Of a DNA stretch of 64,000 nt, positions 1-51,311 are shown one piece after another; position 1 is the first letter of the stretch; each line of letters begins with the position of its first letter. Both the position numbers and the translations under genes were made by a program. The stretch comes from Terracidiphilus sp. (GTDB lineage: Bacteria > Acidobacteriota > Terriglobia > Terriglobales > Acidobacteriaceae). The stretch spans positions 2,190-66,189 of the forward strand of contig JBEKGH010000026.1 of NCBI GenBank assembly GCA_050012895.1. Direction: 5' to 3'. The notes under the pieces are model-generated. The model saw nothing but the letters and a program-made list of their open reading frames with translations, had not been told where the DNA came from and ran no database searches.

Positions 1-1224
1 ATCGACGACGGACTCTCCGTCGGCAACCAGCGCGGCCAGCACCAGCGAAGCAGAAGCGCGCAGATCGGAGCACATGACGGCGGCCGAGGAGAGCCGGGCC
101 GCGCCGCGCACCGTGGCGGTGTTGCCGTCCACCTTGATGTTGGCGCCCATACGCACCAACTCCTGCACATGCATGAAGCGGTTTTCGAAGATGTTTTCGC
201 AAACCAGGCTAACGCCCTCGGCTTGCGTGGCCAGGGCCATGTATTGGGCCTGCATGTCGGTGGGAAAACCGGGATACTCCTCGGTAGAAATGTCGGCTGC
301 GCGTAAACGCCCGTCGCCGTGGACGCGAACCGCATCGGGGCCGAGCACGTCGACGCGCGCGCCAGCCTCCCGCAGCTTGGCGATGACAGCGCCGAGGTGA
401 GCTGTGTTGCAATTCGCGACAATGAGATCGCCGCCGGTGATGGCGCCGGCCACGAGCAACGTTCCCGCTTCAATGCGATCGGGGATGATGCGATAGCGCG
501 CGCCGTGAAGTTTAGCTACGCCGCACACGCGGATGGTGGACGTGCCCGCGCCCTGAATCTTGGCGCCCATGGCGGTGAGCAGAGCAGCCAGATCGACGAC
601 CTCGGGCTCGCGGGCGCAGTTTTCGAGCAGCGTGTCACCCTCGGCCAGAACCGCGGCCATTAACAGGTCTTCGGTGCCGGTGACGGTGATCTTGTCAAAG
701 ACGATGTGCGCGCCTGTCAGCCGCTGGGCGCGCGCCTCAAGATAGCCATGCTCCTGCACGATGACCGCGCCCATTTTTTCCAGGCCCTTGATGTGCAGAT
801 CGATGGGACGGCCGCCGATGGCGCAGCCGCCGGGCATGGCCACCCGCGCCATGCCGGTGCGCGCAATAAGCGGACCCAGAACCAGGGAGCTGGCGCGCAT
901 GGTTTTCACGATCTCGTAGCGCGCCACGGGATCGGAGAGCGAGCGGCAACTGATCGTGGTGCGGTCGTGCGACTCGGCTTCCAACCCCGTGGACGAAGAC
1001 CTGTCCACGGGGACACCGCGCGCCGGCAGCTCTACCTCAGCACCCATCGAGGTCAGCAGCCGCCGCTCGGTATCGATGTCGCGCACCTGCGGAATATTTT
1101 CCAGTGTGACTTCATCCTCGGTAAGAATGGCTGCGGCCATGCACGGCAGCGCCGAGTTCTTGGCGCCCGAAACGCGAATGGTGCCGACCAGCGGATTGCC
1201 GCCGCGAATGACGAACTTGTCCAT
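1..1224 (-). CDS. murA: UDP-N-acetylglucosamine 1-carboxyvinyltransferase MurA (last ~10 codons lie beyond the window edge)
   Basis: Minus-strand translation from ATG 1222-1224: [27 protein letters not shown]...[17 protein letters not shown]...[11 protein letters not shown]...[13 protein letters not shown], collinear with MurA over its whole length. Absent from the ORF track because it runs off the edge. The + ORF 706..1242 is its antisense shadow. Confidence 0.85.
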
Positions 1225-1245: not shown

Positions 1246-2454
1246 CTAGCTCTTAAGTGTAAATGCGCAGCGTTGTGGCGGCGCGAGATGCGCGGTCAGG
1301 CGGGGCTGGAAAGTAGTTCGTGCACTTGCAGGGCGTGGTCGAGTTGGTACTGGAGTTCGGAGACCTTCACCCGGCCTTCCTCCGTTTGAGGGGCTGAGAC
1401 GATTTCCCGCGAAAGTTTCGCAATTTTGAATTTGGCGCTGGCTTTCATCTGGAGGAGGATAAAGCCGCAATCGATCAATGTCGCCATTCTCGAGCCAGTT
1501 GAGAGCCATGCAGGAGGGACAACCAGACACGAAAGGGCACGCCACGCAAGGAGAGGGCTCCGCCTTTCTAACCTCGTCCCATGTCTTGGGCGTGAAAACC
1601 AGAGGGCCAGCATATGTTCGGCCAGTTGAGACTGGGACGAAGCGGTGGCAAGGCAAAGGGTTGCCGTCGACGTCGTAGCAGATCATAGGACCGCCGGAAC
1701 CGCACCATCTCGGAAATTCTGCATCGTCGCCCTTGGCGAAAATTTTCTCGAACGGAAGATCGATGAGCCGCGACGGCTCCAGATGGGGATGTTGGAGATA
1801 GAATTGAATCAGGGCCTCCAACTGGTCGGAAAACTGCGCCATAGATGAATCCAGACGATCGCCCCAAATGTTTTCGAAGGGGACGTTGGCGCCAATTTGG
1901 TCGAACCCCATGGCATGGATTTCAGCGATTCCATCGGCAATCATGGAAATGGTGTCTGGACCGATGGTCATCTTGGCCCTCTTTTCGAACCCCATCCGTG
2001 TGCAGCGTTCGAGCGCCCAGGGCACATGCCGTATCATGCGGTCGTAAGAGTCGCAGCGATTAAGGTTGTGCGCTGTGCGTGTGCCATCTATGCTGAAGCC
2101 GAACGCCACGCACGAGTGACGGTCCAGCCACGCTTTGATCTCGTCAGTGAACAGGGTGCCGTTCGTCGTGAAAGAGAACACGAACTTTTTCGGCCATCTC
2201 TGGCTGTGAACGTACTCAACCAAAGAAACGATTACGTCCCAAACGAGAAGCGGCTCTCCGCCAATGAAGTCAAAATCGACCGTCTCATGGGGCCCCTCCT
2301 CATGCATGTGGCGGGCGGCGATTTCTTTCGCAGTAGCGACAGACATAGCGCGCGAGGACCGCTCAGCGCGAACCTCATAGCAATACGAGCAGCGCAAATT
2401 GCACCGGTCCGTAAGGTGCAGCTGGACCGTTCGAGTTTTGAGCCGCTCTGCCAT
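1246..2454 (-). CDS. radical SAM / SPASM-domain peptide-modifying enzyme (anSME-like maturase)
   Basis: Likely start MAERLKTRTVQLHLTDRCNLRCSYCYE (CxxxCxxC radical-SAM cluster). GGEPLL SAM-binding motif. C-terminal auxiliary-cluster Cys motifs WCGSGGPMICYDVDGNPLPCHRF and CVACPFVSGCPSC are typical of a SPASM domain. Low-complexity C-terminal tail. Lies 8 nt downstream of the Cys-rich peptide gene. Confidence 0.8.
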   Translation of the reverse strand: MAERLKTRTVQLHLTDRCNLRCSYCYEVRAERSSRAMSVATAKEIAARHMHEEGPHETVDFDFIGGEPLLVWDVIVSLVEYVHSQRWPKKFVFSFTTNGTLFTDEIKAWLDRHSCVAFGFSIDGTRTAHNLNRCDSYDRMIRHVPWALERCTRMGFEKRAKMTIGPDTISMIADGIAEIHAMGFDQIGANVPFENIWGDRLDSSMAQFSDQLEALIQFYLQHPHLEPSRLIDLPFEKIFAKGDDAEFPRWCGSGGPMICYDVDGNPLPCHRFVPVSTGRTYAGPLVFTPKTWDEVRKAEPSPCVACPFVSGCPSCMALNWLENGDIDRLRLYPPPDESQRQIQNCETFAGNRLSPSNGGRPGEGLRTPVPTRPRPASARTTFQPRLTAHLAPPQRCAFTLKS

Positions 2455-2462
2455 AAAAAGGA

Positions 2463-2903
2463 CTAGTTGAGCGAGGTGGCGCAACGGCCGGTGCAAGTAC
2501 CGCTGCAAGTACCGCTGCAACTACCGCTGCAATTATCGGCGCAGACGCCCGAGCAAGTACCGGTGCAAGTACCGCTGCAACTACCGGAGCAGGTGCCCGA
2601 GCAGGTATTGGAACATTGGTCACATTGGGCGCTCCCACGTTCGCTGAAGCCTCCGCCCGGCTGCTGGGGTTCAGCTTCCAAGGCGTGGGAATCAAGTGCC
2701 GCGCCTTGGATTTGACGCGCACGCTGGGCAGCTTCCACATCTCCTGAACTGAGCGTTAAGCTGGAGGCCAGCAGTTTGCGGCTTGCGGAGGTCAGCAGGA
2801 GAGCGACAGCTCCGCCAACGTGGATTGCGCTGCGGAGAAACTGCCTACGATCGGCAGCCGCCTCGTTGCGCGGTTCTGTCTCACCGCTCCGGTCCGTCTT
2901 CAT
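2463..2903 (-). CDS. Tat-signal precursor with C-terminal Cys-rich CxxxC repeat (candidate rSAM substrate / RiPP-like peptide)
   Basis: MKTDRSGETEPRNEAAADRRQFLRSAIHVGGAVALLLTSA: twin-arginine motif RRQFLR followed by a hydrophobic h-region. The C-terminal 50 aa are CDQCSNTCSGTCSGSCSGTCTGTCSGVCADNCSGSCSGTCSGTCTGRC (13 Cys at a 4-residue period), built from 12-nt DNA repeats. Start at the second Met; 2915 is the alternative. Confidence 0.55.
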   Translation of the reverse strand: MKTDRSGETEPRNEAAADRRQFLRSAIHVGGAVALLLTSASRKLLASSLTLSSGDVEAAQRARQIQGAALDSHALEAEPQQPGGGFSERGSAQCDQCSNTCSGTCSGSCSGTCTGTCSGVCADNCSGSCSGTCSGTCTGRCATSLN

Positions 2904-3122: not shown

Positions 3123-4106
3123 CTAATTTCCGGTTGGAGCGGCGGCGACGAGACTGAGCGGCTCGCTCAACGTGAAGAGCAGCACCGTTCCGTTTTCGAG
3201 TGTCGCCTGGGGATGGCTCACCAGCAGATGCACGGAGATGACGCTGGCGCCGATGATGGTTCCGGCCAGCGCACCGCCGGGTCCGCCGAGAATGGCTCCG
3301 GTGACCGCGCCTGCGCCCACCGCGCCGCCGTACTCAATGCCGTCCTTCTTGAGGCGCGAACCAGGCGTCACCAGGCCTTCGTTGCCAATGCGGTTTGTGG
3401 ATCCGGGAGCTTCGGTCAATTGCGCATAGAGGCGGAAGTGCGTGCCATCGGGCAGGGTGACGGTTTCAGGGCGCAGACGCATGGAGCCGTGGCCGCCGGC
3501 GCGACCCGAGGAGACCGAAATCACTTTGCCGTCAATTTGAGAACCGGCGGGAATAATGACCTGGCCGTTCTGGATCACGTCGGAGGCGACCCGCGTATGG
3601 AAGGACTCGCCGGGTTGGCTATCCGAAGTGGAAAGGCGGCCCATGAGGCGGACGCGAATGTTGGTGCCCTCGCCGAGTTCCCCCTGGGGCAGCGGGGCAG
3701 GATGCACGATATCGCCATCGGGATCGGCCATCTCTGAACGTGGGCCCGGACCCGGCTGGGAAGCGTTGTCCGCCGGCGCGATCTGCACGAGGCCGTCGTC
3801 GGTACCGTCGCCGTTGGACGGAGGTGGAAGTGTCTCCGTAGCGTTGGCCGGAGCAGGAGCCGTCTCATTGGGAACGGTCTCAGCCGCGTACGGAGGAGGT
3901 GCCGGCTGGGGCTGGGCGTAGTGGCTGGGTGAGGGCTTAGCGGGAGGCGCGGCCTCTGGCGCAGGGGTGGTGATGGTGCTGTCAGGAGGAGGGCTGGACG
4001 TACCCTGGTACGGATTCGACTGGTTCGCCTCCTGCGCTCCCAGTGCGACCGCCGTGGCGGCCAGCAATGCGTACACAAGCCCGTTCGCAAATATCGTCCG
4101 TTTCAT
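3123..4106 (-). CDS. secreted Pro-rich protein with C-terminal glycine-zipper segment
   Basis: Signal peptide MKRTIFANGLVYALLAATAVALGAQ, long P/A/T-rich low-complexity linker, C-terminal GGAVGAGAVTGAILGGPGGALAGTIIGA glycine zipper. Confidence 0.5.
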   Translation of the reverse strand: MKRTIFANGLVYALLAATAVALGAQEANQSNPYQGTSSPPPDSTITTPAPEAAPPAKPSPSHYAQPQPAPPPYAAETVPNETAPAPANATETLPPPSNGDGTDDGLVQIAPADNASQPGPGPRSEMADPDGDIVHPAPLPQGELGEGTNIRVRLMGRLSTSDSQPGESFHTRVASDVIQNGQVIIPAGSQIDGKVISVSSGRAGGHGSMRLRPETVTLPDGTHFRLYAQLTEAPGSTNRIGNEGLVTPGSRLKKDGIEYGGAVGAGAVTGAILGGPGGALAGTIIGASVISVHLLVSHPQATLENGTVLLFTLSEPLSLVAAAPTGN

Positions 4107-4376: not shown

Positions 4377-5776
<1,400 letters not shown>

Positions 5777-6821: not shown

Positions 6822-6896
6822 TTCGGCGCTCTCTTTCTTAAGCAGTCCTTTTTTTTGTTGATGATTCGCTCCAATTATACGAAAAGGACTGAACGC

Positions 6897-6938
6897 ACAA
6901 AGGCCTCCCGACGAGGGAGGCCTTATTGTCTGATTTTA
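6897..6938. terminator. GC-rich hairpin (aaggcctccc-gacga-gggaggcctt) between two minus-strand genes, possible terminator
   Basis: Perfect 10-bp stem with a 5-nt loop, followed by attgtctgatttt on the + strand. The U-tract is weak, so the transcribed strand and function are uncertain. Confidence 0.35.
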
Positions 6939-6950
6939 CCGCTGCCGCCG

Positions 6951-7418
6951 TTAGCGCAGGCGCAGGGCTTTAATGGCTGCGGGCAGGCGTTCTTCAATCA
7001 GCTTGGCGCGCTCGATGGCGATGCCGCCAAGGTACGACGGCGCGGGGGTGGCCATCAGCACCAGTGCTAGAGCGATTACGGAAAAGATCAGTCCCGCGAT
7101 GCCGGCCGAGATCAGCATGTGGTAGGTGTCCTCGACGTCCAGTGCGAAGACATTGAAGGCCACATGCTCCAGTGGGCGGATGTGCTTCAAAACCGCGAGC
7201 GCAAACAGGAAAAAGACGGCTGACAGCGAGGTTAGAACCGCCAGCGTGACGTCAAGGCTGCGATGGAACTTTTGACGCGCGCTACAATGGGCGCATTCGG
7301 CAAAATGACTTTCGTAGTCCCGGCGCATCTCAGGAGAGATGCCGGAAATGTCATACCGCCAGCTTGCCAGAATTGCCCCTACGACCCGGTCGGTGCATTG
7401 GATTCTTGCTGTAGACAT
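6951..7418 (-). CDS. membrane protein with zf-HC2 (anti-sigma-factor-like) zinc finger
   Basis: HFAECAHCSARQ matches H-x3-C-x2-C. Two predicted TM helices follow (LAVLTSLSAVFFLFALAVL, ISAGIAGLIFSVIALALVLMA). No ECF sigma gene is adjacent in the window. Confidence 0.5.
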   Translation of the reverse strand: MSTARIQCTDRVVGAILASWRYDISGISPEMRRDYESHFAECAHCSARQKFHRSLDVTLAVLTSLSAVFFLFALAVLKHIRPLEHVAFNVFALDVEDTYHMLISAGIAGLIFSVIALALVLMATPAPSYLGGIAIERAKLIEERLPAAIKALRLR

Positions 7419-7632
7419 TAGGAAATCACCTGCAAAGAATTCCGTTCAACCGCCGAGCTCCCGTGTGGAGGATCGTTACGGAAGCTTGTTTATTGGACGC
7501 CCCGACGAGTGCTCGGTTGCACAACGTCCACAAATAGACAGCGCCGCACACTTTACCCGGCGCCTTGTTCCGGCCCATCGTGCATCTTCAATTCGTGGCC
7601 GTTACCTTGCTTACTATTGTAACTCTTTCTTT

Positions 7633-8664
7633 TTAGAAACTGATAGCGGAAAGCGGCTCATGTTGCGCAGCCAGCAACAGACGGTTGGCCAATAGGCTGG
7701 CCCGGCCCAGCAAAGCGCGCTCGGCGGCGACCCGCGCCAGCTCAGGAAGGTTATTGTTTTCAGAAAGATGCCCAAGAATGACGTAGGCGGCCTGGCCGTC
7801 GTAGTCGGCGGCAAGGAAGTCCGAGGCGGCGTCGTTTGAGAGGTGTCCCACTCTGGACAAGACCCGTTGTTTGACCGACCAGGGGTAAGGACCGTCACGC
7901 AGCATCTCGAGATCGTGGTTTGATTCAAGTAGCAGCAGGTCCAGGTTGCGCAACTGTTCCCTTACGTTCGGCGGGATGTAGCCGAGGTCGGTGGCAAAGC
8001 CCAGACGAACTCCCTCGGAGCTCAAGACAAACCCCACCGGATCGGCCGCATCATGCGGAATCGTAAAAGGGTTAAGACAGATATCGCCGATAGAGAAGGG
8101 CTGGCCGGCCTGGAAGTATTCGATGGCCGGAAGCCAGGTGGGATCGTCTTTGAGCGCGGGCGGACGGCATCCAGCGGGGTCAGGGGTTGGGTCCAGAGCC
8201 GAGACCGGAGCCGGCCCCCGTGCCAAGTCTGATGCGGTGGGCGCGGCCGATGGGGCCGAGTTTTCTACATCCGCCTCGTCCAGATCGTTTTCTGCAGCCT
8301 CTGTTGCCGATTCAGGTTCGGCCCGCCTCTCGGCAGCCTGTTTGCGGACCATTTCCAGCCATTGGGCGTAGCTCATCTGGCGGCGGGGCTGAAGCCAGCG
8401 CATCCAGGCGCGATGCGTGGCCTCAGTAAAGTACACCGGGATGCCCAGCTTGCGCGCAGTCACCGCGAGGCCGTTTACGTGGTCCTGATGCTCGTGCGTA
8501 ATGACAATGGCGTTGAGGGTGGCGGGCTCTTCCCCGGCCAGCTTCATGCGCCGGAAGAGCTCGCGGCAACTCAAGCCGGCGTCGACGAGGATGCGGGTGC
8601 GGCCGCCAGTAAGAACCGTGCAGTTGCCCTTCGACCCCGACGCCAGCACAGTGAAACGGACCAT
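7633..8664 (-). CDS. MBL-fold metallo-hydrolase
   Basis: MVRFTVLASGSKGNCTVL...ILVDAG...AIVITHEHQDHVNGL (HxHxDH motif). Long low-complexity acidic insert in the middle. Confidence 0.75.
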   Translation of the reverse strand: MVRFTVLASGSKGNCTVLTGGRTRILVDAGLSCRELFRRMKLAGEEPATLNAIVITHEHQDHVNGLAVTARKLGIPVYFTEATHRAWMRWLQPRRQMSYAQWLEMVRKQAAERRAEPESATEAAENDLDEADVENSAPSAAPTASDLARGPAPVSALDPTPDPAGCRPPALKDDPTWLPAIEYFQAGQPFSIGDICLNPFTIPHDAADPVGFVLSSEGVRLGFATDLGYIPPNVREQLRNLDLLLLESNHDLEMLRDGPYPWSVKQRVLSRVGHLSNDAASDFLAADYDGQAAYVILGHLSENNNLPELARVAAERALLGRASLLANRLLLAAQHEPLSAISF

Positions 8665-8794
8665 GGTTTGAGCATACAATCTTGGGAATACAATCCGGGG
8701 TCTGTGGAGAACCCGTCCGTCCCATCCCCGTCACCCGACTGGGTAGTCGTCGGCATTGCCGGAGGTTCAAGTTCTCGATCGAAAGGAGCCGCGC

Positions 8795-9328
8795 ATGAAA
8801 TCCCACTCCGTGCTTGCCATCCTGCTGGCTTGCGCTGCAATCACACCTGCCATGGCGCGCGCGCAAAACTCAAGCCCGCAAAGTACCGGGCCAGCTCCCC
8901 TCCCTACGCCGATCGTCTACCACAATACGCAGTACGGATTCTGCTTTTTGCTGCCCGCGGATTGGAAGGGTTACACAATTGTCGCCGGCAAGTGGAGCGG
9001 GACCCTGCTGAACACAGGGAAGATGATGCACGGACCTCAGCTTATAATTCGACACCCGGCATGGACGGAAGACGATCCGTATCAGGACATCCCCATCATG
9101 GTTTTCACGCAGGCACAATGGCGCGAGAAAGAGGAGCACGGACTCATCGCAAGTACGTTCGGAGCCGATTGGGGCCCCTTCGGAAGCAATGCAAGGTATG
9201 TTTTCAAACAGCCGGACCGCTGGGTTGGCTACACCGACGATAAGGGGTGGAGAGAAGTGGAAGATTTGATGATGACCCACCCGTTCCAGGCGCCGTGCGC
9301 AAATAGCAAGGCGTCAGCCGCAAAATAG
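8795..9328 (+). CDS. secreted hypothetical protein, tandem paralog 1
   Basis: RBS AAGGAG 7 nt upstream. Signal peptide MKSHSVLAILLACAAITPAMARAQ. Shares PTPIVYHNTQY.FCFLLPADWKGYTIVA..WSGT.L.TG with the next gene. Confidence 0.6.
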   Translation: MKSHSVLAILLACAAITPAMARAQNSSPQSTGPAPLPTPIVYHNTQYGFCFLLPADWKGYTIVAGKWSGTLLNTGKMMHGPQLIIRHPAWTEDDPYQDIPIMVFTQAQWREKEEHGLIASTFGADWGPFGSNARYVFKQPDRWVGYTDDKGWREVEDLMMTHPFQAPCANSKASAAK

Positions 9329-9432
9329 TATTTGGGCTTCACAATTTTGCGATCGCCTCAAGACAGGTGCGGGCGTGGACGCCTACACGACGGCCGGTGA
9401 GGGGACCGGCGCCACTTCGAAGGGAGTTGAAC

Positions 9433-48369: not shown

Positions 48370-49495
48370 TGGCCATGCGCTCCTCTTCCTGAGTTTGCCG
48401 CTCCCGAGCCCGATCTGGATTTCGCTCAAGATTCGAATTCAGGCCCTCGCGGCGCGCCAGCTCATGCACAAAGCGGAGCACGTCCTCGTGCGAAGGCACG
48501 TTGCCGCCCATGCGATTCAGAAACTCGACGGGCCGCGAGCCGTTGAGTGCCAGCTTCACGTCTTCCAGCATCTGGCCGTTGCTCATCTCCACCACCACAA
48601 AGAGCCGCGCGTTGAAGGCCAGGCGCTGGAACTGCACCACCGGGAAGGGATAAAGCGTGATGGGCCGCAGCACGCCCACCTTGAGCCCTGCGGCGCGCGC
48701 CTCGGCGGTCACGGCCTTCAGAATGCGGCCCACGATGCCGTAACCCACCAGCACAATCTCCGCATCGCCCGTGCACCATTCTTCCGCGCGTGTCTCGCGC
48801 TGCTCAGCAAGCTTGTACTTGGCCTCGAGCTTTTGAATGTGCTTCTCCAGTTCATCGAAATCGAGTGCCAGTGAAGTGATGAGGTTGCCGCGTGAGTCCG
48901 CGGTTCCGGCCACCGCCCACGGGGGCAGATGCGTCGGCGTGGCAGATTGCGGAAATTCCACCGGCTCCATCATCTGGCCGATGAAACCGTCGGCCATCAG
49001 CACCACCGGATTGCGGTAGCGATCCGCCAAATCGAAGGCCAGCGCGGTCAGGTCTGCCATCTCCTGCACGGAGTGCGGAGCCAGCACGATGGTGCGATAG
49101 TTGCCATGGCCGCCGCCCTTCACCACCTGGTGATAATCGCCTTGCTCGGCGCCGATGTTGCCCAGCCCAGGGCCGGCGCGCGTGATGTCGGCAATGACGC
49201 ATGGCAGCTCCGCGCCGGCCATGTAGCTGATCCCCTCCTGCATCAGGCTGATGCCGGGGCCGCTCGAAGCCGTCATGGCGCGCACACCGGCCGACGCCGC
49301 GCCGTAGAGCATATTGATGGCCGCGACCTCGCTCTCCGCCTGCACGTACACGCCGCCGGTTTTGGGCATAAACTCCGCCGCGGCCTCGGCGATCTCGCTG
49401 GCCGGGGTGATGGGATAGCCGTAGAACGCCCGGCATCCAGCCAAGATGGCGCTCTTGACGATGGCCTCGTTGCCTTTCATCAGTTGCTTTTTCAT
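48362..49495 (-). CDS. 2-oxoacid:ferredoxin oxidoreductase alpha subunit
   Basis: [35 protein letters not shown]...[31 protein letters not shown]. Confidence 0.8.
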
Positions 49496-49878
49496 GCGGC
49501 CGCTCCCTCCAACCCGGATCTGGTTGCCCCATCCTTTTCCGCAGCCTCATCGCGGAAAGGCTGGGAATCGGGTACGGTTGCGGTTGCCCCATCCTTTTCC
49601 GCGGCCTCATCGCGGAAAGGGTGGGAACCCGCAATCACCAAACGCAACACGGTAATGGCCCCCGGCTCCGGGCACGCCATGAAGCAAATGCCGCAAGCCG
49701 TGCAGCCGCTGCCCCTATACAACGCCGTGCGGTAGCCGTAGTGATTCAGCCGCTCGCTGAGCGAGATCACCTTGGGCGGACACGCTTCGATGCACAGGCC
49801 GCAGCCCTTGCACTCTTCTTCGTCGACCTGCAACTGGCCCCGATCCGGTCTCTTGTCCGGCTTGCTCGATTGCTCCAT
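49492..49878 (-). CDS. 2x[4Fe-4S] ferredoxin (delta subunit) with a C-terminal extension encoded by 45-bp hairpin repeats
   Basis: MEQSSKPDK...[15 protein letters not shown]...[17 protein letters not shown]. The ORF then reads through two repeat copies ([15 protein letters not shown] x2) to overlap the korA-like start. Confidence 0.65.
49522..49626. repeat. two tandem copies of a 45-bp hairpin repeat (GTTGCCCCATCCTTTTCCGCRGCCTCATCGCGGAAAGGGTGGGAA)
   Basis: Copies at 49522-49566 and 49582-49626. Stem cccatccttttccgc/gcggaaagggtggg. Third copy at 49945-49988. Confidence 0.75.
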
Positions 49879-49944
49879 TCCGTCCGCCTCCTTCACGCAA
49901 CTGCCCCCAGCTCCGCTAACCCCGCTAACTCCGCTGCCTCCTCC

Positions 49945-49988
49945 GTTGCCCCATCCTTTCCGCAGCTTCATCGCGGAAAGGGTGGGAA
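49945..49988. repeat. third copy of the 45-bp hairpin repeat
   Basis: gttgccccatcctttccgcagcttcatcgcggaaagggtgggaa. Adjacent 9-bp GTTAGCGGR-type repeats (reverse) at 49911-49937. Confidence 0.7.
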
Positions 49989-49994
49989 CGCGCA

Positions 49995-51311
49995 CTACGC
50001 ATACGCCGGTTTCCGCTCCATATAGTGCGCACGCACCGCAAAATCCTCCAACTCCGCCTGGAAGCGCGGATCGGCAATGGCGATCAGCGCATCGGCGCGT
50101 TCGCGCAAGGTTTTTCCGTGCAGATAGGCAATGCCGTGCTCGGTCACAACGTAATGCACATCGGCGCGGGAAGTGACCACGCCCGCGCCCGGCTCCAGCA
50201 CCGGCACAATGCGCGACACCGTGCCGCCCCGCGCCATTGAAGGCAGCGCAATAATGGGCACCCCGCCTTTGGAACGCGCGGCGCCGCGTATGAAATCAAT
50301 TTGCCCGCCAAAACCGCTGTAGGGCCGCGTGCCCAGCGAATCGGCGCACACCTGCCCGGTCACGTCGATTTGCAACGCGCTGTTGATCGCCACCATGCGC
50401 TCGTTCTGCGCCACCACATACGGATCGTTGGTGTAGCTGATCGAGCGAAACTCGAATGCCGGGTTCTCGTGAACATAATCGAAGAGGCGCTGCGTGCCCA
50501 GCACGAACGACACCACGGCCTTGCCGCGATGCAAGGTCTTGCGCTCGCCGTTGATCACGCCGGACTCCATCAGATCGATCACGCCGTCCGGAACCATCTC
50601 GGTATGAATGCCCAGGTCGTGTTTGTCGCTCAAGCAATGCAGAACCGCCTCGGAGATGCCGCCGATGCCGGTCTGCAACGTAGCGCCGTCGGGGATAAGC
50701 GAGGCCACGTTGCGCGCCACGCGCATGTGCATCTCGGTGGCGGCCTCGGCTTCCAGTTCGAGCAACGGCCGGTCGGTCTCCACAATAGCCGAGATGCGGC
50801 TGAGGGGAACGACGGTGTCGCCATGCGTGCGCGGCATCTGCCGGTTCACTTCGGCAATCACAATGGGAGCGCAGCGCAATACCGTCTGCGTGCAATCCAC
50901 CGTAGTGCCCAGGGTCACGAATCCGTGTGCGTCCGGCGGCGACACCTGCATCAACACCACATCGAGCGGCAGGTCGCCGCTCTCAAACAGGCCTTCAATC
51001 TCGCTGAGGAAGATGGGCGTGTAATCAGCGCGGCCATCGCACACCGCCTCGCGCACATTCTCGCCCAGAAACAGGCCGCGATGACGGAAGTGGCCTGCGT
51101 ACTCGGGCCGCGTGTAATCGGCGGCGCCGAGCGTCTTCATGTGAATGATTTCGACGTTGCGAAGCTCGGGCGCCCGGGCCACCAGCGCTTCCACAAGAGG
51201 AGAAGGCGTTCCGCAGCCCGATTGAATCCAGATGCGAGCGCCGGATGCGACGGCTTTGAGCGCCTCCGCGGCGCTCATGCGCTTGCGCTCGGTTTCCTCA
51301 GTCCAGCTCAT
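49995..51311 (-). CDS. acetyl-CoA hydrolase/transferase-family CoA-transferase (4-hydroxybutyrate/succinyl-CoA:acetate type)
   Basis: ...[25 protein letters not shown]...[26 protein letters not shown]...: AcetylCoA_hydro N- and C-terminal domain pattern. Confidence 0.7.

Follow-up and report, generated by a model that had tools for sequence, protein, structure and literature searches.

PapB, an enzyme of the radical S-adenosylmethionine (SAM) type with a SPASM domain, makes several Cys-Asp/Glu thioethers in one peptide bearing six CX3D motifs (PMC9413430), and QhpD puts multiple Cys thioethers into a small subunit (PMC11002830). General-secretion signal peptides on precursors of RiPPs (peptides that the ribosome synthesizes and that are then modified post-translationally) have been called rare, and the work describing them deals with MNIO-modified peptides that bear Sec- or lipoprotein-type signals (PMC12452194, PMC13056109). 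Precursors that rely on such signals, and not on a leader, protease and exporter of their own, came to notice only recently. A Cys-X-X-X-repeat target paired with a radical-SAM/SPASM maturase already has entries in the family databases, TIGR04114/TIGR04115 and PF27846. In the literature searched, whose coverage was incomplete, neither an experimental characterization of the TIGR04114/TIGR04115 systems nor a study combining twin-arginine translocation (Tat), a RiPP precursor and radical SAM was found. Here, we describe a pair of genes, one for a Cys-rich peptide and one for a radical-SAM/SPASM maturase, in a 64,000-nt stretch of Terracidiphilus sp. DNA (contig JBEKGH010000026.1, positions 2,190 to 66,189), which is called the window below. 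On balance, we favor reading the pair as a two-gene RiPP-like module of Acidobacteriaceae, a Tat-type variant of the CXXX-repeat radical-SAM target family whose product would be cross-linked and then exported. The initial annotation of this DNA had proposed an undescribed class, which the catalogued families contradict; as judged from sequence, what is new is a Tat-type signal serving as leader together with a divergent maturase clade.

The 146-aa open reading frame (ORF) with RRQFLR and an h-region, on which that proposal was built, is present at 2463-2903. The gene and its parts are as follows.

2463..2903, minus strand: precursor gene, 146 aa plus stop (ORF translation; TIGR04114 match; PF27846 on the identical protein).

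2766..2903, minus strand: predicted Tat signal peptide, residues 1-46 (n-region, RR motif, h-region and basic c-region RK).

2703..2759, minus strand: post-signal box, residues 49-67, LTLSSGDVEAAQRARQIQG (conserved; predicted helix at 53-65).

2466..2624, minus strand: core, residues 94-146, with 13 Cys, mostly C-[ST]-G-[ST] (translation; 12-nt tandem repeats).

The precursor starts at ATG 2903, and an alternative in-frame ATG at 2915 adds four residues to give 150 aa. Its layout comprises an acidic/polar n-region, the motif D-R-R-Q-F-L-R (residues 18-24, nt 2832-2852), an h-region of 17 uncharged residues (SAIHVGGAVALLLTSAS), R-K-L-L-A-S-S with a putative signal-peptidase I site at L-L-A46/S-S, the box LTLSSGDVEAAQRARQIQG, a Pro/Gly/Glu-rich linker and the Cys tail. 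The AlphaFold2 model of the precursor showed helices at 17-48 and 53-65 with low confidence (predicted local distance difference test score, pLDDT, 49) and was uninformative on the core. A strict period-4 array of 13 Cys in the last 50 residues had been reported; the number of Cys was correct, but they lie in the last 53 residues, with one spacing of 3 (C-x2-C) followed by eleven of 4 (C-x3-C). The units are mostly C-S-G-T or C-S-G-S, and the 53 residues contain two Asp and no Glu. The 12-nt repeats said to encode the array were recovered by Tandem Repeats Finder (period 12, 8.2 copies, 2488-2586), as was a period of 48 at 85% match. The GC content was 57.5% for the precursor-maturase module and 60.2% for the window.

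The precursor scored 26.4-26.5 bits (E 6e-6) against TIGR04114 (Cys-rich repeat-containing protein/tSAM_targ_Cxxx), above the cut-off of 20, and a match to PF27846 (tSAM_targ_Cxxx_rpt) was precomputed on the identical 146-aa protein annotated on two contigs of the same population (L001 and L002). The product was identical in six same-population contigs. Of 26 clade precursors, only 10 matched TIGR04114 at E<=0.05.

The gene for the maturase follows the precursor gene directly.

1472..2454, minus strand: radical-SAM/SPASM maturase, in-frame part, residues 1-327 (PF04055, PF13353; 99% identity to P0001).

As initially annotated, this gene begins 8 nt past the precursor stop (ATG at 2454) and carries a CxxxCxxC motif (residues 18-25, nt 2380-2403) with extra Cys clusters at 251/259/269 and 303/306/312/315. 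Its Pfam domains are PF04055 (Radical_SAM) and PF13353 (Fer4_12), a signal peptide is lacking, and the intact protein P0001, of 390 aa, matches it at 99% identity. SPASM membership was assessed by the seven-Cys pattern C-x9-15-G-x4-C, C-x2-C-x5-C-x2-3-C and a final C. Both CxxxCxxC and this pattern were found in the clade, with G264-x4-C269, and C18, C22 and C25 as well as the seven SPASM cysteines (C251, C269, C303, C306, C312, C315 and C334) were all invariant. SPASM cysteines 1-6 of the window maturase are encoded at nt 1510-1704, and the seventh is out of frame in the window copy.

The two genes form a conserved pair. In each of the five related loci with DNA, one to three co-oriented precursor genes immediately precede the maturase (two in L004, two in L007, one in L087, one in L088 and three in L089), and the same arrangement occurs in the same-population contigs. 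Because the pairing recurs in five loci and the precursor passes a curated profile cut-off, the pair is not a chance arrangement. In the flanks compared among the related loci, no protease or transporter was conserved beside it, and the conserved unit, as far as these sequences indicate, is the precursor gene or genes plus the maturase. The precursor-maturase couple of the initial annotation was thereby upheld, both by the neighborhood comparison it had called for and by a leader that is conserved next to a core that is hypervariable.

The twin-arginine motif reported in the leader proved invariant, RRxF[LI] being present in 33 of 33 full-length precursors. Leaders were aligned for ten precursors derived from loci (A2) and for 26 clade precursors (A4). 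In these alignments, RR, F22, L35, L51, A59 and A62 were invariant, and G30, G31, A32, L37, A46, A58, R60 and R61 were invariant or nearly so, as were the GGA, LLL and EAARRA box motifs. A46 was invariant in the ten and nearly so in the 26; L51, A58, A59 and A62 were invariant and R60 and R61 nearly so in the ten, and L51, A59 and A62 remained invariant in the 26. The family consensus of the post-signal box is L-x-L-x4-[LM]-[ED]-A-A-R-R-A-[RQ]-Q.

The cores of the 33 precursors contained 8-20 Cys with spacings of CxC (17), CxxC (115) and CxxxC (215), so that strict CxxxC is not a trait of the family. Gly was found at Cys+2 in 73-78% of the core units, and the overall composition was 26% C, 26% G, 17% S, 11% T and 4.4% D+E. 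A conserved leader joined to a hypervariable core is the classic signature of a RiPP precursor. In P0126, from a 632-nt ENA contig, the first 82 residues are identical to those of the window peptide and are followed by a different, shorter core (CVLCGGCSYTCEGSCSGCTGTC…), which points to diversification of core cassettes within one population, or to a paralogue.

Some 30 protein clusters, 63-75% identical and almost all 391 aa in length, made up the close maturase clade. A scan of genome contigs for the maturase gave one close locus among the 600 stretches listed (L007, from an Acidobacteriaceae metagenome-assembled genome and the only close locus with a taxonomic label), the rest being distant radical-SAM genes. 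A leader-only profile retrieved 28 clusters among 5.8 billion proteins, and an exhaustive search by profile through 1.84 billion representatives gave 42 matches at E<=1e-3, of which 21 reached E<=1e-10. The Tat-leader precursor family is rare. Since it is small and confined to uncultured soil and peat Acidobacteriaceae, its ecological reach is modest.

The weak matches of the exhaustive search include other Cys-repeat peptides with signal-like N-termini. On a 1.1-kb contig of an unrelated, low-GC lineage (L101, positions 83-1139, Logan SRR5969117; P0168), at least three tandem Cys-repeat genes have Tat-like leaders of the form [NS]-R-R-[DE]-F-F-K; no maturase is visible on this contig, which is too short to show whether one follows.

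Tat signals are recognized by a Z-R-R-x-Phi-Phi motif, a weakly hydrophobic h-region of at least 13 uncharged residues and a basic c-region. The window peptide has each of these features (DRRQFLR, 17 uncharged residues, then RK), and because the RR motif, h-region and c-region are invariant in the family, their functional importance is strongly supported. We therefore consider it likely that the precursor is targeted to Tat. The curated models were nearly silent: at E<=0.05, TIGR01409 (TAT_signal_seq) matched two of 26 members, one with 17.6 bits (cut-off 16.7) and another with 15.3, and PF10518 matched one of 26, both being too insensitive here to decide the type of signal; TIGR01409 gave no match for the window peptide.

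The near silence of these models would also be expected if the hydrophobic segment were a Sec signal or an uncleaved anchor, and the RR pair served recognition by the maturase or a chaperone. Distant Cys-repeat peptides (P0176, P0180 and P0172) do have signal-like N-termini that lack RR, and a maturase without a RiPP recognition element (RRE) must recognize something else in the leader. However, RR-x-F-[LI] occurs in every one of the 33 precursors, four residues before a 17-residue uncharged stretch rich in Gly, Ala, Ser and Thr and followed by a basic c-region, and cross-linked cargo suits Tat better than Sec. We regard a Sec signal or anchor as improbable and give it little weight next to the Tat assignment.

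The Tat-type leader appeared to be specific to this clade within the loci sampled. Maturase relatives at 35-40% identity (L090 and L092) adjoin CxxxC-core peptides that have cytoplasmic leaders with no signal peptide, one of them with a GG motif, and the precursors beside bona fide TIGR04115 enzymes likewise have no signal peptide.

The maturase was compared with the known families by profile scores. Among the NCBIfam models, TIGR04115 (CXXX-repeat maturase) and PapB ranked best, followed by the QhpD, CcpM and SCIFF maturases, several of which form thioethers. TIGR04115 gave 148.8 bits for the window copy and 151.6 for P0001, both below the cut-off of 350, and the PapB model NF047865 gave 149.8 against a cut-off of 340. 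As references, bona fide TIGR04115 enzymes from Firmicutes and other genomes scored 447-562 bits, and a Paenibacillus PapB orthologue scored 435.7 on the PapB model. The maturase is about 27% identical to bona fide TIGR04115 members. Because its scores are about 150 bits where the cut-offs are 340-350, the profiles place it in a separate, third sister clade of the same broad RRE-less group as TIGR04115 and PapB, and in neither equivalog. The identities of anSME (TIGR03942, 60.1 bits; cut-off 349), QhpD (TIGR03906, 96 bits; cut-off 453), SCIFF maturase (TIGR03974, 89-90 bits; cut-off 425), CcpM and nif11 maturase were rejected, all scores being far below the cut-offs.

The AlphaFold2 model of the maturase had a mean pLDDT of 90.2. 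The top solved structure by Foldseek was CteB (E 1e-17, TM 0.65), followed by anSME, ChlB, SuiB, TigE and SkfB. Since the sequence alignment to CteB (E 1.4e-17) begins at CteB residue 97 and the radical-SAM barrel, with its first beta-strand, begins at the very start of the model, the maturase has no N-terminal RRE. Two long helices (334-358 and 363-387) follow the SPASM domain in the model. At six positions defined on CteB by proximity to the catalytic site (PMC10288494), a regex-based comparison gave Y-I-T-S-H-R for the window clade, F-F-T-S-H-Q for CteB, Y-F-T-S-Q-R for the PapB orthologue and Y-I-[SC]-[ST]-x-R for TIGR04115. These residues are compatible with a thioether-forming pocket, which is only suggestive.

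The second rank of the anSME structures, together with the export signals that sulfatases also carry, would fit an anSME- or QhpD-type maturase whose substrate is encoded elsewhere and for which the Cys-rich ORF is a bystander. The initial annotation had itself named anSME as the alternative to be examined by profile search. With 60 bits against 349 for TIGR03942 and 96 against 453 for TIGR03906, with no sulfatase or qhp genes in the neighborhoods compared, and with the Cys-rich gene as the only conserved neighbor, this explanation is scarcely credible, and the enzyme is best regarded as the maturase of the adjacent peptide.

A mechanism can be proposed for the pair. The N-terminus of the precursor would be bipartite, with a Tat signal and a conserved helical box (…EAARRARQ…), followed by the variable linker and the hypervariable Cys/Gly/Ser/Thr core. 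The cytoplasmic RRE-less SPASM radical-SAM enzyme would bind the precursor probably through the box, a candidate docking site, for which the C-terminal helical hairpin of the enzyme may offer a surface. It would then put multiple Cys-derived cross-links into the core. These are most likely thioethers, because several of the nearest characterized relatives (PapB, QhpD and CteB/SCIFF) form thioethers. Tat transports cargo that has ceased to be an unfolded chain; the cross-linked peptide would be such cargo, and might leave by the general Tat pathway and be trimmed by signal peptidase I, probably after the conserved Ala46. Tat export and signal peptidase I would together account for the lack of a dedicated protease or transporter beside the pair. 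The signal peptide argues for a role in the periplasm or envelope, where a protective or protease-resistant metal-binding function seems as plausible as an antimicrobial one.

Since Asp and Glu are nearly absent from the cores, the acceptor of the cross-link must differ from that of PapB and QhpD. Gly at +2 is the only conserved non-Cys position, which makes a link from Cys to the Gly alpha-carbon a reasonable candidate, with the side-chain carbons of Ser/Thr as the alternative.

The same composition, with 26% Cys among small residues and few Asp/Glu acceptors for PapB-type chemistry, would also suit a periplasmic poly-Cys buffer for metals or redox, comparable to metallothionein, with thiols as its functional groups. 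The enzyme would then load a cofactor, or its chemistry would be of another or more restricted kind, and Tat would export the folded form charged with metal or cluster. Tat classically carries cofactor-loaded proteins, and bufferins, which are Cys RiPPs with signal peptides, are periplasmic copper chelators (PMC12452194). However, the length and register of the core are hypervariable, leaving no fixed geometry for a metal site; the strict genetic link to a maturase with relatives that use up Cys thiols in thioethers argues that most Cys are modified; and free thiols would oxidize in the periplasm. A buffer of this kind is therefore quite unlikely, and a cross-linked peptide is preferred.

Taken to its furthest form, the cross-linked, Tat-exported peptide would represent an undescribed RiPP route in which a Tat signal replaces leader, protease and transporter, an RRE-less enzyme docks on a post-signal helix and builds a ladder of short thioether rings on the poly-Cys core, possibly from Cys sulfur to the Gly+2 alpha-carbon, and the product is exported by Tat to the periplasm to serve as a protective or metal-binding agent and not as an antibiotic. 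This extended version is offered tentatively, and we hold it to be less probable than not in its entirety.

The window copy of the maturase gene carries a lesion, which, like the minus-strand orientation of the genes, was absent from the initial annotation.

1471..1472, minus strand: junction of a 14-nt deletion (GCGTACGAATTGGC missing), causing a frameshift (blastn against same-population contigs).

1296..1471, minus strand: true C-terminal part of the maturase, out of frame, with C334 and two helices (matches P0001 residues 334-390).

1246..1295, minus strand: end of the spurious out-of-frame tail, intergenic in the intact gene (frame translation).

Over its final 75 residues, the 402-aa maturase ORF encodes a nonsense tail rich in Pro, Arg and Ala, and another frame encodes a plausible maturase C-terminus, CGFILLQMKASAKF…, with a stop at 1296. 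P0001 reads …NGDIDRRTNWHCGFILLQMK… across the deletion site. By blastn, the metagenome contigs L001, L002 and L003 differed from the window by 0-2 mismatches over 1.5-2.1 kb and one 14-nt gap, and L097 and L098 showed the same single gap; all of these contigs come from peat and soil samples. The deletion takes out R329-H333 and puts C334 out of frame; R329, H333 and C334 were invariant in an alignment of 32 sequences. As written in the window, the maturase has lost the seventh SPASM cysteine, a ligand of an auxiliary cluster, and should be inactive.

A second deletion was found in the enolase gene (plus strand, about 4560-5776), where 79 nt are missing at 5566/5567, the frame is shifted and the conserved ILIKxNQIGTxTET segment is gone. 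The 79 nt are present in L097, L098 and L099, where the enolase is intact at 430 aa. A scan of metagenome contigs with a 28-nt enolase pattern matched unrelated organisms only, and these matches served to show the normal enolase sequence. The window thus has two frame-breaking deletions in conserved genes within 4.1 kb, and the comparison population is 99.6% identical. Independent assemblies of that population have neither deletion, which makes long-standing pseudogenization less likely than an artefact in the sequence or its assembly, or a lesion acquired very recently.

Were the module instead a decaying pseudogene, the 14-nt deletion would be real, the maturase dead and the peptide unmodified or not made. 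The loss of R329-H333 and the displacement of the invariant C334 and the C-terminal helices agree with this, and the L099 contig breaks off no more than 10 nt from the junction, suggesting heterogeneity in the population at that point. Nevertheless, the gene is intact in five independent contigs (L001, L002, L003, L097 and L098) at 99-100% identity; no further lesion is present in the precursor or elsewhere in the maturase, with 0 mismatches to L001 over 2.1 kb; and the second deletion, in a housekeeping enolase 4 kb away, points to sequence quality and not to selection. We consider decay unlikely and treat the maturase gene as intact in the population.

The L099 contig ends at window position 1482, at most 10 nt from the junction, as if the assembly graph had branched there, which is compatible with heterogeneity. 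At 6840-6960, 121 nt of the window stand in place of 930 nt in L097 (2259-3188; contig 99% identical), which there contain two small genes, for a membrane-like protein of 182 aa and a protein of 77 aa. The difference would be a genuine indel or else a third deletion affecting the window.

Several points weigh against a Tat-exported, cross-linked peptide. The Tat models detect few members and neither detects the window peptide, the maturase is frameshifted in the window as given, and the structure model of the precursor is of low confidence (pLDDT 49). The proposed chemistry is extrapolated from enzymes that are about 20-30% identical. Asp/Glu, the acceptors of PapB and QhpD, make up only 4.4% of the core, so that the acceptor, and possibly the reaction, must differ. 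In addition, the scheme of maturation is incomplete because the conserved box lies past the predicted cleavage site.

The neighboring genes of the module are given below.

1..1224, minus strand: murA, cut by the window edge (PF00275, 308.9 bits), starting 21 nt after the stop at 1246-1248.

3123..4106, minus strand: 327-aa secreted protein with a signal peptide and a Gly-zipper-like tail (ORF), 219 nt upstream of the precursor gene.

The precursor and maturase genes share the minus strand with both of these. The placing of murA shortly after the maturase ORF was accurate (21 nt), but the ORF end from which that distance is counted belongs to the out-of-frame tail, the true stop being at 1296. 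The secreted glycine-zipper gene described about 220 nt upstream on the same strand was confirmed; its 327-aa product had no Pfam or NCBIfam match. The significance attached to co-orientation with these two genes did not survive comparison with other loci, since none of L004, L007, L087, L088 and L089 has murA beside the maturase and the Gly-zipper gene was present in same-population contigs only. A functional link of the module to either neighbor was rejected, neither being conserved. The flanks vary among loci (secA, ABC transporter, TonB-dependent receptor, IS/transposase and MscS channel genes; murA and enolase in the window). A promoter scan found none, and the terminator-like matches all fell within coding sequence, none of them between the three genes. 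In the whole 64-kb window, there was no tRNA gene and no Rfam family at threshold.

Further observations were made on the surroundings of the related loci. In L087 (1-7704), the module lies among resolvase/recombinase, IstB (IS21) and rve_3 integrase genes and adjoins a second, unrelated radical-SAM gene of 466 aa with a 50-aa ORF; these surroundings hint that the module is mobile. In three related loci, the module stands divergently beside secA (L004, 722-3817; L007, 1729-4746; L088, 1-2906), an arrangement that synteny within the lineage probably explains. In one lineage only, that of L004, the maturase is followed after 69 nt by the gene (7245-9341) for an ABC transporter of 698 aa (ABC_membrane plus ABC_tran). 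Far from the module, the window contains a ferredoxin-like ORF with CxxC motifs and a tandem duplicated segment at its end (49495-50295, minus strand).

If the Tat assignment is true, a Tat signal on a radical-SAM substrate would extend the idea of general-secretion RiPPs to the pathway for folded cargo, which is a mechanistically reasonable exit for a peptide that an oxygen-sensitive enzyme has cross-linked in the cytoplasm. The acidobacterial clade offers a compact two-gene system for determining the chemistry of the CXXX-repeat family, and a different cross-link may be expected from its cores, which are without PapB-type Asp/Glu acceptors.

The closest described system is the CXXX-repeat system (TIGR04114/TIGR04115, PF27846), which shares with the window module a C-terminal array of Gly/Ser/Thr-rich Cys-X-X-X repeats and an adjoining RRE-less SPASM maturase of about 360-390 aa. 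Its bona fide precursors have cytoplasmic leaders, whereas the window clade has a Tat-type signal and an EAARRARQ box instead. The maturase scores also differ (about 150 versus 447-562 bits), and the order of precursor followed by maturase and the Acidobacteriaceae hosts are listed as further differences of the window module. PapA/PapB, which yields the ranthipeptide freyrasin, is similar in the size of the SPASM maturase and in a substrate with a period-4 Cys motif. However, PapB links Cys to Asp/Glu in CX3D/E, the window core has Cys at i+4, and PapA lacks an export signal, unlike the window precursor with its Tat-type signal.

CteB/CteA (thermocellin, SCIFF) provides the closest solved structure by sequence and fold. 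A SPASM domain with two auxiliary clusters is common to both enzymes, and four of the six active-site proximity residues are similar, but CteB has an N-terminal RRE of about 96 residues that is absent from the window maturase, and SCIFF precursors are short, with six Cys and no signal peptide. The anSME/sulfatase and QhpD/QhpC systems follow the same logic, in that a cytoplasmic SPASM radical-SAM enzyme modifies Cys of a polypeptide that works outside the cytoplasm; the window locus has neither the sulfatase CxPxR context nor a qhp operon. Bufferins and other MNIO RiPPs resemble the module in having Cys precursors with a general-secretion signal as leader, minimal clusters with no protease or exporter, and a probably periplasmic function, as proposed here (PMC12452194, PMC13056109). 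They differ in that their signals are of the Sec or SPII type and their peptides are modified by an MNIO enzyme with a partner protein, whereas the window module appears to combine a Tat-type signal with a radical-SAM/SPASM maturase.

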